DNA of 32,000 nt from Candidatus Saccharimonadota bacterium (GTDB lineage: Bacteria > Patescibacteriota > Microgenomatia > UBA1406 > GWC2-37-13), in assembly GCA_016700135.1 (NCBI GenBank), contig CP065004.1:720001-752000 (forward strand), in the 5' to 3' direction. The notes under the pieces are model-generated. The model was given only the letters and a program-made list of their open reading frames with translations, was not told the DNA's origin and did no database searches. Of the stretch, positions 20,539 to 28,500 are shown one piece after another. A program made the translations under genes and the position numbers. Numbering within the stretch: the first letter of the stretch is position 1; the number at the start of each line of letters is the position of its first letter.

Positions 20539-21621
20539 ATGAACACGCTGAGAGTCATTTACTTCATTGCCGGAGTATCTATTACAATATCTCTATTTAT
20601 TTTTTCCTCAACTAATGTGCAGGCTGCTGCACCGGCCACTCCACGGGGACCCCATTACGCATGTGACCTGACAAACGGTACCGCAACCATCAAATGGTTC
20701 GATACATATAATGCAAGCGAGTATTGGTTCAGGCTTGATGCCGAGCCTCGTTCATGGACTGAGTCTTGTTCGAGTACCAATGACGGTGATATATGTCGAA
20801 CCTCATCAGATGCAGAAGTGACAGTTCCTATTACCCCCGGGGTTCCCTATAATTGGTGGGTACATGCAGCAAATACCGACGGGCATAGTGCGGCGCTCGA
20901 CGGTCCGGATTTTACTTGTAATCTGCCTGTTCCGCGGGGATTTCACTATGAATGTCTCGATAATAATGCAAAGGTCCGCATAGGATGGCAGACGAGTGAC
21001 GGTACAGATCCTGGGCGCTATGAAGTAAGACTCGATGCATACAGTCCGTCATGGAATGACAACTGTGACAATGACGGGGATGTATGTCAGACGGTTACCG
21101 AACAGGAAGCTGAGTTTGAGATAGAATCGGGGGTGCCATATCGTTTCTGGGCACACAGTGCATTAGGAGACGTCTGGTCTGAATCGATTAATCCTATGGC
21201 ATTTTCATGCGGAGAAGTACCTGATCCGACCCTTATTCCCAGTTCAACGCCGACAGTTACACCTTCTCCATCGCCGAGCTACACACCTACCCCAACAGTT
21301 ACACCGACTCCCAGCAGTACACCCATTCCGACAGCAACCTACACTCCTTCACCGACCCTTATCCCCAATACGCCGACTGTTACCGAAACAACGGTGACGC
21401 CGGAACCGACCGGTGCTGATGAGTGTGCAAGACGGGGAGAAGGTGACGCAGACTGTAACGGCAGCATTGAAAAAAACGATTTTGAATGCTGGAAAGGATT
21501 CTATATTAGTACCGTGATGGACACAGAGCGAGGTTGTCAATATACCGATTTTGATAATTTCGGAGGAACCAACTTGCTGGATTATGCAATTTGGTATATC
21601 TCGTTTATAAATGAAACATAA
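20539..21621 (+). CDS. secreted protein: signal peptide, two Cys-containing FN3-like modules, Pro/Thr linker, C-terminal four-Cys dockerin-like module
   Basis: MNTLRVIYFIAGVSITISLFIFSSTNVQA/AAP is a signal peptide. Tandem modules are PRGPHYACDL..ATIKWFDTYNASEYWFRLDA..PYNWWVHAANTDGHS and PRGFHYECLD..VRIGWQTSDGTDPGRYEVRLDA..PYRFWAHSALGDVWS. The PT linker is PTLIPSSTPTVTPSPSPSYTPTPTVTPTPSSTPIPTATYTPSPT. The C-terminal module is listed separately. Confidence 0.8.
   Translation: MNTLRVIYFIAGVSITISLFIFSSTNVQAAAPATPRGPHYACDLTNGTATIKWFDTYNASEYWFRLDAEPRSWTESCSSTNDGDICRTSSDAEVTVPITPGVPYNWWVHAANTDGHSAALDGPDFTCNLPVPRGFHYECLDNNAKVRIGWQTSDGTDPGRYEVRLDAYSPSWNDNCDNDGDVCQTVTEQEAEFEIESGVPYRFWAHSALGDVWSESINPMAFSCGEVPDPTLIPSSTPTVTPSPSPSYTPTPTVTPTPSSTPIPTATYTPSPTLIPNTPTVTETTVTPEPTGADECARRGEGDADCNGSIEKNDFECWKGFYISTVMDTERGCQYTDFDNFGGTNLLDYAIWYISFINET
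21412..21618 (+). other. dockerin-like C-terminal module with four Cys
   Basis: GADECARRGEGDADCNGSIEKNDFECWKGFYIS...CQYTDFDNFGGTNLLDYAIWYISF. It has two Ca-loop-plus-helix segments (DADCNGSIEKND-F and DFDNFGGTNLLD-Y) resembling the duplicated dockerin repeat D-x-N/D-x-D/N-G-x-I-x3-D. Confidence 0.55.
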
Positions 21622-21640
21622 TATGTGTTCTGATAATTTT

Positions 21641-21655
21641 TGATACACTGAATAT
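21641..21655 (+). promoter_or_regulatory. extended -10-like TGaTACACT (21641-21649) exactly 6 nt upstream of ATG 21656
   Basis: Sequence is ttTGATACACTgaatatATG. The hexamer matches consensus at 4 of 6 positions, including A2 and T6. Confidence 0.35.
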
Positions 21656-27419: not shown

Positions 27420-27456
27420 GTTTTCATATAATCTATTTACGCAGCATACCCTTCAA

Positions 27457-27471
27457 TGGTATTATGTATAC
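27457..27471 (+). promoter_or_regulatory. extended -10 TGgTATTAT (27457-27465) exactly 6 nt upstream of ATG 27472
   Basis: Sequence is caaTGGTATTATgtatacATG. Confidence 0.5.
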
Positions 27472-28500
27472 ATGGCTTCGCTTCAACGTCCACACTTAGG
27501 CGGATCAAAACGAAAACTGACTGTTATATTTGTAGCACTCACAACTCTTGTGGGGCTTCCGGTTCTGTTGTTTGTTATTCTGGCGATCCAGGGGTTTGTA
27601 TCCGGTGTGGGAAGCGATAAACCGGTTGATGTTATCGCCTCGGAAATCACCAAATCATCCGCAGTTATCACGTGGCATACCGATAAAAAAACGCAGGGTG
27701 TTGTGGAATACGGAACGACACCGACAGCACTCAATTCCTATGCTCCGGAAGTCGGATCATCCAAGGAGCATGAGGTGAGCCTGACGTTGTTATCTCAATC
27801 AACAACTTATTATTATCAAATACGGATAAACGGTACGACATATGATAACTCCGGCGTGCCCTGGACATTTACGACCAAGAATAAAGACGGCGAAGACGTC
27901 GCTGAGGCGATAAAAGGGATTTCAACCCGTATTGCCCGTGAAGAAGAAGCTACGGAAGAAGCGGGGATAAGCACAAGTAACTGTACCGTAACCGACTGTA
28001 ATGAAATTAAAGCAAAGCTCGGAAAAGGGTGTAGCTCGGCTGATTATTTCAAATGTATATCTCTGCAGGGGACACCCGGTACGAGTGAGTATACCGGCAA
28101 TTCCGCTTCTACACCCACACCTACTGTCGCCAAGACAATCTCGACTTCAAACTGTGCGATAAAATACCTTCAGGTTGAGCCGGGTAAAACCTGCCTGTCA
28201 TGGACATGGGATTCATTTGCCACAAAGGATCCTGATTGCCGAAAAGCGTATGATCGCTACGTGTTTCAGTGCAGCAGCAAAAGTTTTACTTCAACGAATT
28301 CTGAGCAGATCCCAACCTGGTATTACAATAACGCAATCACAAATATGACTTCAAACAGTGTCGAACTGAACAGTAAACCACCACAGGGTTCGACGGTTTA
28401 TTGTCAGGTAAGAGCAGAGGATGCAAACGGAATAACGACAGAATGGGTTGAAGCTTCAGCTGTCTGTGATTATCCACCGACGCCGACACCTACACCTTAA
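27472..28500 (+). CDS. TM-anchored surface protein: FN3 / purple-acid-phosphatase-N-like module, Cys-rich middle, second FN3-like module, ending in a PT linker
   Basis: TM helix LTVIFVALTTLVGLPVLLFVILAI. ITKSSAVITWHTDKKTQGVVEYGTTPTALNS...HEVSLTLLSQSTTYYYQIRI is a typical FN3/Pur_ac_phosph_N pattern. The protein ends ...AVCDYPPTPTPTP-stop. Confidence 0.8.
   Translation: MASLQRPHLGGSKRKLTVIFVALTTLVGLPVLLFVILAIQGFVSGVGSDKPVDVIASEITKSSAVITWHTDKKTQGVVEYGTTPTALNSYAPEVGSSKEHEVSLTLLSQSTTYYYQIRINGTTYDNSGVPWTFTTKNKDGEDVAEAIKGISTRIAREEEATEEAGISTSNCTVTDCNEIKAKLGKGCSSADYFKCISLQGTPGTSEYTGNSASTPTPTVAKTISTSNCAIKYLQVEPGKTCLSWTWDSFATKDPDCRKAYDRYVFQCSSKSFTSTNSEQIPTWYYNNAITNMTSNSVELNSKPPQGSTVYCQVRAEDANGITTEWVEASAVCDYPPTPTPTP

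Follow-up and report, generated by a model that had tools for sequence, protein, structure and literature searches.

A putative conserved cohesin-dockerin surface-display locus with non-catalytic, adhesin-like cargo in Microgenomates-type CPR bacteria

The sca cluster of Ruminococcus flavefaciens is arranged as ScaC-ScaA-ScaB-CttA-ScaE, and its sortase-anchored single-cohesin protein ScaE receives the X-dockerins of ScaB and CttA. In Clostridium (Acetivibrio) thermocellum, the X-module and type II dockerin of CipA bind the anchoring cohesins of SdbA, OlpB or Orf2p (PDB 2b59, 3kcp). Cohesins and dockerins are also used outside cellulosomes, as in the toxin/GH84 complexes of Clostridium perfringens (PDB 2w1n, 2ozn) which link secreted enzymes together. 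To our knowledge, the function of many non-cellulosomal cohesin-dockerin pairs is a long-standing open question, and little is known of how ultra-small CPR/Patescibacteria form their envelope and make contact with partners. Non-cellulosomal cohesin and dockerin modules were reportedly surveyed by Peer et al. in 2009. Sortase anchoring of Ruminococcus scaffoldins has been described (PMC11557425). In CPR bacteria, the cohesin and dockerin genes of Ca. Shapirobacterales were read as cellulosomes (10.1101/2021.08.21.457207), and Geesink et al. 2020, as cited in that work, reported a 'cellulosome' in Ca. Roizmanbacterium ADI133. Such genes have thus been noted before in Roizmanbacteria and other Microgenomates, and their presence in CPR is therefore not new.

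An ORF check of the window, that is the whole 32-kb stretch of DNA analysed, placed six same-strand genes (g1 to g6) at 20533-28500 on the + strand. All products are modular and predicted to be exported or membrane-anchored, in agreement with the original prediction of six co-oriented genes encoding only such proteins. All six ORFs claimed there are present; only the start of g1 differs, which lies at 20533 while the claimed 20539 is the next in-frame ATG. The intergenic gaps from g1 to g6 are 34, 30, 48, 7 and 52 nt and no convincing internal terminator was found in the block, and the six genes are predicted to form an operon-like unit. Divergent from g1, an ORF for a 74-aa HTH_17/MerR-type DNA-binding protein is situated at 20224-20448 on the - strand, and its orthologues are so annotated in loci L001-L003, L008, L009, L011 and L013. 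A perfect 12/12 sigma-70 consensus was observed near this gene at 20488->20460. The protein is a candidate local regulator of the locus. The reading we favour, with a probability of roughly 0.6, is that the locus encodes a cohesin-dockerin surface-display system, operon-like and inherited vertically in Microgenomates-type CPR, which in this Roizmanbacteria lineage assembles only non-catalytic, adhesin-like proteins.

The proteins were scanned with Pfam using the gathering cut-offs of 24.1 bits for Cohesin (PF00963) and 22.9 bits for Dockerin_1 (PF00404). Cohesin passed its cut-off in three proteins, with 51.1 bits over two stretches of g3, 26.2 bits in g4 and 35.4 bits in g5, which bears out the four cohesin-like modules proposed earlier. 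The same check of all six proteins gave no match for g1 and g2 at E<=1, and the g3 dockerin scored 21.2 bits in the full protein, below its cut-off, and 24.0 bits as an isolated cassette. The four cohesins fall in three sequence classes, with A and B on g3, C on g4 and B on g5. The cohesin of g5 is 45-48% identical to the second cohesin of g3, and hhalign identified the module of g4 as a homologue of the g5 cohesin family (93%, E 3e-7). The PDB matches of the g4 module are weak and confined to R. flavefaciens cohesins. From sequence alone the class A cohesin is weakly supported (hhalign 37%, PDB E 0.026). The AlphaFold (AF2) model of g3 (pLDDT 80.4), which also gives the domain boundaries, superposes on the nine-stranded jelly-roll beta-sandwich of solved cohesins, and Foldseek aligned it with 1g1k, 6kgf and 2vn5 at TM 0.68-0.77 and rmsd 2.3-3.5 A. 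The cohesin dyad 3l8q was matched as well. The best Foldseek match is 3kcp_A (E 5.9e-12), and 2w1n, a cohesin with FN3, is among the top matches.

The g3 gene (24284-26044, +) encodes an N-terminal TM helix (aa about 17-44), a class A cohesin (nt 24416-24916), a linker, a class B cohesin (nt 24992-25414), another linker and a cassette of Ig-like beta-sandwich plus dockerin (nt 25484-26038). The combination of a TM anchor and a dockerin in one protein is unusual. Cohesins and dockerin on the same protein give g3 a scaffoldin-like character, and the earlier claim that the scaffold itself bears a dockerin thus stands. The model shows three helices at 537-585 in the dockerin region. All 16 cassette family members examined match Dockerin_1, and the cassette profile matches PDB dockerins including 2b59_B and 3kcp_A with the dockerin part aligned. 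In this comparison with PDB only the dockerin aligns, and no sequence homology of the Ig-like module to X-modules was detectable. Dockerins were judged by a duplicated F-hand, in which a helix comes after each of two 12-residue Ca-binding loops of the form D-x-[DN]-x-[DN]-G-x-[IV]-x-x-x-D. The second calcium loop of the g3 dockerin is canonical (DLNLDGIIDTQD) but the first is atypical (GDIPTQNQVVDSAD / DIPTQNQVVDSAD), so that its description as a canonical dockerin holds for one loop. By analogy with type II dockerins, one canonical and one atypical loop would be compatible with a single binding mode.

The two upstream genes encode secreted proteins ending in a related module. The 362-aa g1 (20533-21621, +) possesses a signal peptide predicted to be cleaved near VQA|A, two FN3-like modules with cysteines (aa 32-128 and 133-225) which form an internal repeat and are related to the g2 module and, after a PT linker, a four-cysteine dockerin at the C-terminus (nt 21412-21615; 113 bits with a local HMM). 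g2 (21656-24253, +) is composed of a signal peptide, one FN3-like module (aa 82-178), a Cys-rich and beta-rich centre, PT linkers and, at the C-terminus, a four-cysteine dockerin (nt 24014-24244). Despite the lack of a Pfam match, a profile of the two C-terminal modules matches the type I dockerin 5nrk_B (E 1.2e-5) across both repeats and also 8x39_A (E 2.9e-4), which upholds the dockerin-like modules proposed for g1 and g2. As read from the sequence, both calcium-binding loops of the g1 dockerin are canonically spaced (DADCNGSIEKND, DFDNFGGTNLLD), and those of g2 carry insertions of 1-2 residues in both loops. The two dockerins share four invariant cysteines and are predicted to be a new four-cysteine dockerin type. 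The term FN3-like is weakly supported for g1 and g2, where all top PDB matches are FN3 but at E values of 0.013-0.1. Orthologues of g2 vary from 681 to 1433 aa with domain swaps, and have a mosaic middle carrying CARDB, DUF11, Filamin or fn3 in which no enzyme was found. For g2 itself, Pfam, NCBIfam and PDB profile searches gave no enzyme match and left about 400 aa of the centre without any assignment, a stretch which might conceal a catalytic or carbohydrate-binding domain; PDB profile searches of the centre gave no significant match and the AF2 model of the protein (pLDDT 32) was unusable.

The cohesin and dockerin calls could be chance similarity in low-complexity, beta-rich secreted proteins encoded by unrelated neighbouring genes, an idea which the missing Pfam matches of g1 and g2, the sub-threshold g3 dockerin in the full protein and the weak sequence signal of the class A cohesin would suit. 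It is hardly credible against three proteins above the curated Cohesin cut-off, a structural cohesin match at TM 0.72-0.77, profile matches of the Cys-dockerins and the cassette to solved dockerins at E 1e-5 to 6e-7, Dockerin_1 in 77 of 85 surveyed cassette relatives and a gene order which is invariant across more than 20 loci. Pfam cut-offs, structure match, dockerin profiles and synteny effectively refute chance similarity.

The remaining three genes encode anchored proteins. In g4 (26093-26767, +), which is present in every untruncated locus, a short cytoplasmic tail precedes the TM anchor (aa about 27-49), and the rest is a class C cohesin (nt 26330-26761). g5 (26775-27419, +) contains a signal peptide, a class B cohesin (nt 26856-27281), a linker, LPASG (nt 27315-27329), a hydrophobic segment and a basic tail, and its C-terminus ends with ...LPASGVYGDMMRYTALGGVLLVAGLGLRLIMKIV. 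This is the pentapeptide, hydrophobic segment and basic tail of an LPXTG-type sorting signal, with about 10 residues between the motif and the hydrophobic core; the NCBIfam LPXTG model gave no match on g5. The LPASG sorting signal proposed for g5 is reinforced by its orthologues, as L-P-x-x-G is invariant among eight of them down to 33% identity, with S, T or A at position 4, and variants are LPKTG in L008 and LPQTG in L012. No sortase gene was found within the 32-kb window. For another Microgenomates bacterium, with a complete genome and an envelope of Gram-positive type, a sortase is on record (PMC7143001). g6 (27472-28500, +) has a TM anchor (aa about 14-49), an FN3-type module (nt 27610-27876), a Cys-rich region and a C-terminal beta domain, and neither cohesin nor dockerin was found in it. 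Its FN3-like module, as originally named, matches Pur_ac_phosph_N with 35.8 bits (cut-off 30) and fn3 with 17.7 bits. Two TM anchors and one sortase-type signal agree with the earlier proposal of several anchors in a cohesin/dockerin locus.

Comparison across related genomes, which had been suggested, showed that the block is kept as a unit. The order cassette protein, g4, g5, g6 is retained in more than 20 related loci, g6 lies directly 3' of g5 in nearly all of them, and the module order is identical in nine metagenome loci. In L001-L003, L005, L009, L011 and L012, the cassette protein, the class C cohesin, the class B cohesin with LPxxG and the FN3 protein adjoin M50/L28/Def/GT2/YchF. This conserved order beside def, rpmB and the M50 peptidase gene argues for a vertically inherited envelope module. 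Identity of the cassette across loci drops to about 30-45%. g4, g5 and g6 are near-universal and comparatively slow-evolving. The cassette family contains at least 936 clusters. At the equivalent locus position the fusion partner of the cassette is an M4 thermolysin-type peptidase in L008, and L009 has a Laminin_G_3 module there instead; lectin-like cargo also occurs among other family members, and in this lineage cohesins stand in place of such cargo.

The same conservation would also suit a structural cell-envelope module, in which the cohesin-dockerin pairs hold a constitutive surface layer or wall lattice of FN3- and Ig-like proteins and serve envelope integrity rather than attachment. Deep vertical conservation in many genomes beside def, rpmB, ychF and the M50 peptidase gene and the comparatively slow evolution of the near-universal g4, g5 and g6 speak in favour of such a lattice, g3 could in principle chain as it has a cohesin of its probable receptor's class, and a cultivated Saccharibacterium cannot do without one of its envelope proteins that has a dockerin domain (PMC10633639). 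We consider a lattice unlikely, as the distal subunits are too variable in length and domains, the range of cassette cargo from cohesins to proteases and lectin-like domains suits a display platform better, and Foldseek with the g3 model found no likeness to known S-layer proteins beyond generic Ig folds.

The cargo also bears on the original claim that the locus is non-cellulosomal. Scaffoldin cohesins and cell anchoring, both cellulosomal traits, are present, with two cohesins and a dockerin on g3 and anchored cohesins on g4 and g5. No catalytic domain was found in g1-g6 by Pfam, NCBIfam and PDB profile searches, which left the centre of g2 unassigned as above, no CBM family was matched at E<=1 in Pfam, and no dockerin-bearing glycoside hydrolase or plant-cell-wall CAZyme was found in the locus, the 32-kb window or the orthologous loci. 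As no glycoside hydrolase, CBM or protease is recognisable in any subunit, non-cellulosomal is the right reading, and on this point the earlier claim is sustained. The absence of enzymes noted there is true for this lineage on profile searches but not for the relatives, which attach M4 peptidase and a few lyase- or GH-like domains to the cassette. Among the 85 surveyed cassette proteins M4 peptidase is the commonest enzyme cargo (eight proteins) and a few carry Alginate_lyase, Glyco_hydro_cc, DUF4185 or beta-helix/NosD domains; each of the polysaccharide-active domains was seen once, and no cellulase family of the kind usual in cellulosomes is among them. The original interpretation thus survives as a real non-cellulosomal multi-anchor locus with a scaffoldin-like g3, and is enzyme-free only in this lineage and not in the system as a whole, which is best seen as a general surface-display platform with non-catalytic cargo here.

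Against this, the locus might be the scaffold of a true cellulosome-like polysaccharide-degrading complex, with dockerin-tagged enzymes encoded elsewhere and g1 and g2 as accessory or substrate-binding proteins. Two papers have read CPR genes in this way (10.1101/2021.08.21.457207, and for Ca. Roizmanbacterium Geesink et al. 2020 as cited therein), the few polysaccharide-active cassette members agree with it, a GH18 gene is present in the window at 702-1769, and the enzyme search covered 32 kb of a 1.45-Mb genome. We regard this as quite improbable, since the three dockerin-bearing proteins and the g2 orthologues contain no recognisable GH, CBM or other CAZyme domain, the GH18 protein of the window has no dockerin, and M4 peptidase leads among the enzyme cargo of the cassette with no typical cellulosomal cellulase family. 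In pattern-limited searches, the Cys-dockerin occurred nowhere in the 940-kb UBA1450 contig except at this locus, and about 185,000 species genomes gave just four loci with it. Further, the neighbourhood is one of housekeeping genes and not a polysaccharide-utilisation context.

Returning to the display system, the distribution of modules hints at the possible pairs. The triad of cassette dockerin, class C cohesin and class B cohesin is found in every untruncated locus, including L008, which has M4 peptidase cargo and no class A cohesin. Conservation is highest in the second calcium loop of the cassette and in the cohesin of g5. A Cys-dockerin protein lies immediately upstream of the class A-bearing g3-like protein in the window and in L001-L005, L007, L009, L014, L017/L019 and L020/L022; neither was detected in L011, and in L012 the class A cohesin was not detectable though a Cys-dockerin is present. 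This co-occurrence and conservation suggests that the cassette dockerin pairs with the g5 or g4 cohesins and the Cys-dockerins with the class A cohesin of g3. In the proposed assembly, g5 would be exported and then joined covalently to the wall by a sortase, and g4 would stay in the membrane through its TM helix, so that both present a single cohesin. g3, tethered by its N-terminal TM helix, would plug its C-terminal cassette into the class B cohesin of g5, the class C cohesin of g4 or both, modelled on the docking of the X-module-dockerin of a primary scaffoldin to an anchoring scaffoldin. The secreted g1 and g2 would dock by their four-cysteine dockerins, probably on the class A cohesin of g3, and so expose beta-sandwich modules of FN3-like and Ig-like type on the outside, where a host cell envelope or a polymer may be the partner surface which they bind. 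Specificity would be set by the middle of g2, which is mosaic and changes rapidly. An adhesion role is plausible from the module types (FN3-like, CARDB, Ig-like) and the mosaic middle of g2. The platform would be generic and the cargo lineage-specific, because relatives display M4 peptidases or lectin-like domains on it. Proteomics of Ca. Shapirobacterales recovered cohesin and dockerin proteins (10.1101/2021.08.21.457207), and the essential dockerin-domain protein of the Saccharibacterium points to a importance of such proteins in other CPR bacteria (PMC10633639).

A bolder and tentative extension is that the sortase-anchored cohesin, the TM-anchored cohesin and the TM FN3 protein form a lineage-wide, core-genome 'surface socket' of Microgenomates-type CPR on which interchangeable adhesins, lectins, proteases and secondary scaffolds are mounted. 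The Roizmanbacteria elaboration would then be a two-tier enzyme-free adhesion complex attaching to a host or partner, with a previously undescribed, disulfide-stapled four-cysteine dockerin and its own cohesin class, and with g2 as host-range determinant. This is possible, though we would not count on it.

With four cohesins, three dockerins and defined anchors, the system is compact, conserved and modular, and pairwise tests are possible without culturing the organism. It offers a testable candidate for how tiny CPR bacteria decorate their envelope or attach to partners. It also corrects the metagenomic habit of reading a CPR cohesin/dockerin annotation as cellulose degradation, a reading with consequences for what is inferred about carbon cycling. 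The four-cysteine dockerin and the widespread Ig+dockerin cassette would supply new orthogonal cohesin-dockerin pairs for protein engineering.

Among the described systems, the R. flavefaciens sca cluster with sortase-anchored ScaE is probably the closest analogue. Both are clusters of non-catalytic structural genes; g5 resembles ScaE as a small single-cohesin protein with an LPXTG-type anchor, g3 resembles ScaB as a multi-cohesin protein ending in a dyad of beta-sandwich and dockerin, and g1 and g2 resemble CttA or ScaC in role as extra non-enzymatic dockerin proteins. The cohesin and dockerin profiles repeatedly match R. flavefaciens modules (5lxv_B, 5k39_B, 5m2s_A). As identity to the Ruminococcus modules is marginal, this is an architectural analogy and orthology is not demonstrated. 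Unlike the sca cluster, this locus belongs to an ultra-small CPR bacterium and possesses a TM-anchored g3, a second, TM-anchored cohesin in g4, a TM FN3 protein in g6 and, in g1 and g2, dockerins with four invariant cysteines; dockerin-tagged glycoside hydrolases, over 200 in R. flavefaciens, are not evident here. Like CipA of C. thermocellum, g3 is a scaffoldin with a C-terminal dyad of beta-sandwich and dockerin which would dock to cell-bound cohesins. However, g3 lacks CBM3 and the enzyme-binding array of type I cohesins, its Ig-like module has no detectable sequence homology to X-modules, and the anchors are TM helices or a sortase signal instead of SLH domains. Cohesin-dockerin use outside cellulose degradation is shared with C. 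perfringens, whose complex 2w1n is among the top structural matches, but here it resides in a dedicated, anchored and conserved multi-gene operon without enzymes. The CPR 'cellulosome' reports also come from the Microgenomates superphylum and probably concern the same kind of genes, the proteins of which are expressed. In those reports cellulose degradation was deduced solely from the names of domains, whereas the present locus and its relatives are without cellulases and represent a conserved module for anchoring and display, with cargo of adhesin-like, lectin-like or proteolytic character.

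A conserved, operon-like block of six genes (g1 to g6) on the forward strand encodes exported or anchored proteins only. Between them these proteins have four cohesins, which fall into three classes, and three dockerins of two types, as well as a sortase-type signal; no recognisable enzyme is among them. The ORFs are g1 (20533-21621, 362 aa), g2 (21656-24253, 865 aa), g3 (24284-26044, 586 aa), g4 (26093-26767, 224 aa), g5 (26775-27419, 214 aa) and g6 (27472-28500, 342 aa). All six were found co-oriented as in the original prediction, whose anatomy of the locus proved essentially right. 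The intergenic spacing is only 7-52 nt and no convincing internal terminator was found within the block. Hydrophobicity profiles revealed an N-terminal signal peptide or transmembrane (TM) segment in all six proteins, in agreement with the claim that every product is exported or anchored, and an additional hydrophobic segment at the C-terminus of g5. In the public annotation g2 is IPM65_03915, a protein of 799 aa with its start 66 codons downstream; since this version drops the signal peptide, the 865-aa ORF is more plausible.

Divergent from g1, a HTH_17/MerR-type gene of 74 aa (20224-20448, reverse strand) is preceded by a perfect sigma-70 promoter (TTGACA-17-TATAAT, 12/12, 20488 to 20460). 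At least seven other genomes also have a homologous HTH gene with the locus, its position and orientation differing from one to the next, and the gene is a candidate regulator. On the forward strand a promoter-like site, TTTACT-18-TATGAT with a TG, lies in the stretch 20501-20539 and ends 2 nt upstream of the ATG at 20533. A transcript from this site could be leaderless, beginning at the ATG at 20539 which had been predicted as the g1 start. Further upstream on the same strand are two giant ORFs of 1507 aa (11455-15978, no cysteine) and 1291 aa (16346-20221), with a small ORF of 116 aa (15982-16332) between them. These highly charged proteins are syntenic with the cohesin locus in five (L001-L003, L009 and L011) of the related loci fetched from other genomes and metagenomes, which raised the idea that they belong to the system. 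They were set aside for now because cysteine is almost absent from them, neither a signal peptide nor a TM segment is present, cohesins and dockerins are lacking, and searches of Pfam, NCBIfam and the PDB gave no match.

The predicted cohesins of g3 (51.1 bits, two stretches), g4 (26.2 bits) and g5 (35.4 bits) all scored above the curated Pfam cut-off. An AlphaFold2 model of g3 built from 30 homologues was confident (pLDDT 80.4) and is composed of a TM helix, three beta-sandwiches (residues 50-211, 238-376 and 404-523) and a three-helix C-terminal module (537-585), with two disordered PT linkers. Its best Foldseek matches were the scaffoldin fragments 3kcp_A (CipA cohesin-X-dockerin) and 3l8q (cohesin dyad), and single cohesins matched it with TM scores of 0.72-0.77. 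Local comparison distinguished three classes of cohesin. Class A is the N-terminal cohesin of g3, class B comprises the second cohesin of g3 and that of g5, which are 45-48% identical to each other, and class C is the cohesin of g4. Profile-profile comparison showed class C to be homologous to class B (93%, E 3e-7), while class A is much more divergent in sequence (37%), its best PDB matches being cohesin chains at E 0.026; the assignment of class A as a cohesin rests mainly on the g3 model.

The class B copies differ in their rate of change. The one in g3 (24992-25414) shows 66, 44 and 33% identity to its counterparts in L002, L001 and L003, and the slower-evolving one in g5 (26856-27281) shows 86, 79 and 73%. 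With 53% identity to the g5 cohesin of the distant L009, the g3 copy of the window is also nearer to that protein than to its own orthologues. This pattern may have arisen by gene conversion, by repeated duplication or through relaxed constraint. The identity of the class A cohesin (24416-24916) falls from 82% (L001) to 27% (L003), while every other module declines gradually, and this drop could reflect specificity switching with the dockerins of g1 and g2.

The dockerin of g3 forms, together with the preceding Ig-like beta-sandwich, a C-terminal cassette. It scored 21.2 bits for Dockerin_1 in the full protein, below the cut-off of 22.9, and 24.0 bits as the isolated cassette. Dockerin_1 was matched by all 16 aligned cassette relatives, and the cassette profile matched solved dockerins at E 6e-7. 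The description of this dockerin as canonical holds for the second calcium loop, which is nearly invariant between genomes, but not for the first, which is atypical. For the dockerin-like modules predicted in g1 and g2, Pfam gave no match at all in either protein. Over their last 70-80 residues the two proteins are homologous and share four invariant cysteines, and the profile of this Cys-dockerin matched the solved type I dockerin 5nrk_B over both repeats (E 1.2e-5). The Cys-dockerin and the g3 dockerin are two types, because they have only the Ca-loop motif in common and the Cys-dockerin HMM did not detect the g3 dockerin. In a pattern-limited scan the Cys-dockerin was rare: about 185,000 species genomes gave 4 loci, and the 940-kb UBA1450 contig gave this locus only. 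In L003 (9732-9950) the g2 dockerin diverges abruptly in its second half (…SGKVTLFLTLLYGELVL), which suggests a frameshift, an assembly error or dockerin decay.

The two FN3-like modules of g1 and the single one of g2 make up a separate family. Of the FN3-like modules originally predicted, that of g6 was supported (Pur_ac_phosph_N in Pfam, 35.8 bits), and those of g1 and g2 had only weak matches (E 0.013-0.1), although all their top PDB matches are FN3 domains. The middle of g2 is a mosaic, with lengths of 681 to 1433 aa and domains swapped between close relatives, the pattern expected of a surface recognition protein; among its orthologues only CARDB, DUF11, Filamin or fn3 were found. The AlphaFold model of g2, from a 3-sequence alignment, reached a pLDDT of 32.5. 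A Cys-rich insertion at about residues 36-80 of g2 is present only in this strain and in the homologous protein P0034. The g2-like protein of L007 (4872-6917) is built of a ~140-aa Cys-rich domain (…CSGNPxCTFNGGQVNCSG…) repeated three times in tandem, of which the window's g2 has one copy (aa about 300-440). Nothing in PDB or Pfam matches this domain, which represents an extracellular family not described before. A DsbB gene adjoins the locus in L011 (10846-11394), an observation of note as the exported g1, g2 and g6 modules are Cys-rich.

The C-terminus of g5 consists of LPASG, ~10 residues, a hydrophobic segment and basic residues, and by its motif is a putative sortase-type sorting signal, as had been proposed. 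The L, P and G are invariant in eight orthologues, down to 33% identity, and the variants LPKTG and LPQTG occur in two orthologues. These canonical variants, and an LPxxG that stays invariant next to a hypervariable linker, speak against a plain TM anchor. No sortase gene was found within the 32-kb window, and nothing specific on sortase or LPXTG in CPR was found in the literature; one complete Microgenomates genome is reported to encode a sortase (PMC7143001).

No catalytic domain was detected in g1-g6 with Pfam (E<=1) or NCBIfam. Profile searches of two central regions of g2 against the PDB gave no match or chance-level matches to antibody V-domains, and the stretch without domain assignment (about aa 183-610) could still hold a CBM or an enzyme. 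A GH18 family protein (702-1769, forward strand, 83 bits) has no dockerin and was rejected as a docked enzyme; a GH18 peptidoglycan hydrolase is reported to be encoded by the complete Microgenomates genome (PMC7143001).

The g3 protein is identical to the hypothetical protein IPM65_03920 (P0001) of a Candidatus Roizmanbacteria genome, encoded on a contig of 1.448 Mb. Comparison with related genomes showed a conserved order of two giant ORFs, small ORF, HTH gene and g1-g6, even at a g3 identity of 41%, followed by genes for an M50 peptidase, rpmB, def, a GT2 and ychF. When HMMs built for each module were mapped on the 22 fetched loci, the triad of cassette protein, class C cohesin protein and class B cohesin protein with LPxxG was found in every locus not cut by a contig end, nearly always followed by a g6-type FN3 protein. 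A Cys-dockerin protein lies immediately upstream of the class-A-bearing g3-like protein in lineages where either was confidently detected (the window, L001-L005, L007, L009, L014, L017/L019 and L020/L022), except in L012, where the Cys-dockerin is present and class A was not detectable. In L011 the HMMs detected neither. In L004, L005 and L007 the CPR-type locus is on contigs of MAGs with the titles 'uncultured Gammaproteobacteria' or 'Gammaproteobacteria bacterium', and the Cys-dockerins of the first two are 75-80% identical to that of Roizmanbacteria; these contigs are probably mislabelled or mis-binned.

In distant relatives the protein at the g3 position keeps its TM segment and C-terminal cassette and its middle changes, to a class A cohesin only (L007, L016 and L020-L022), class A with Laminin_G_3 (L009) or an M4 thermolysin-type peptidase without cohesin (L008). 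Exhaustive search recovered at least 936 cluster representatives of the cassette family, of which 296 had E<=1e-30. Nearly all of these proteins end in the cassette, at the extreme C-terminus, and the N-terminus is hydrophobic in 130 of the top 144. A second cassette protein lies downstream of the locus in L013 (11513-13084). Among 85 members surveyed with Pfam, Dockerin_1 was found in 77, Cohesin in 13, Peptidase_M4 in 8, Beta_helix in 4, Laminin_G_3 in 3, NosD in 2, and Alginate_lyase, Glyco_hydro_cc, DUF4185 and CHRD in one each. The absence of enzymes, true of g1-g6, is thus lineage-specific, as the cassettes of relatives carry M4 peptidase. A cellulosome with enzymes encoded elsewhere in the genome, of which 32 kb were seen, is disfavoured by this cargo spectrum, by the housekeeping genes that surround the locus and by the lack of CAZymes in it and in its orthologues.

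The locus is a real, well-defined, non-cellulosomal cohesin-dockerin system, and chance similarity is refuted. In the proposed assembly g5 (wall-linked) and g4 (membrane-linked) would serve as single-cohesin anchors. The g3 cassette would dock on g4 and/or g5, since the trio is universal and stays together even with protease cargo, and the Cys-dockerins of g1 and g2, which co-occur with class A, may for that reason dock on the class A cohesin of g3. In the complex g1 and g2 would then present their FN3-like and Ig-like modules. We infer that its most likely function, a plausible one, is to attach to a partner surface or to recognise one. A constitutive part in envelope structure would be compatible with how deeply the locus is conserved by vertical descent and with the finding that a dockerin-domain protein is essential in a cultivated Saccharibacterium (PMC10633639), but fits poorly with the variable distal subunits. 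Since this cassette carries proteases and lectin-like domains in relatives, a general display platform is the best description of the conserved part.

Earlier work had noted cohesin/dockerin genes in Microgenomates and named them cellulosomes. Those of Ca. Shapirobacterales were so called and their proteins detected by proteomics (10.1101/2021.08.21.457207), and this preprint refers to Geesink et al. 2020 for Ca. Roizmanbacterium. The modules themselves are familiar and their occurrence in CPR was known before; no description of the conserved syntenic module, the cassette family, the Cys-dockerin or the enzyme-free composition was found in the literature. The locus offers a compact parts list which can be tested directly in vitro and is relevant to the surface biology of CPR. 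Dockerin-tagged CAZymes and CBM, defining features of cellulosomes, are absent within the locus and the window, so the term non-cellulosomal is apt and the locus should not be filed as a cellulosome. In architecture it is closest to the sca cluster of R. flavefaciens, and the CipA XDoc-SdbA of C. thermocellum (3kcp, 2b59) is also close. The sca cluster comprises the sortase-anchored single-cohesin ScaE, ScaB with its cohesins plus an X-dockerin, and dockerin proteins without catalytic function. That scaffoldins of Ruminococcus are anchored by sortase is documented in PMC11557425.
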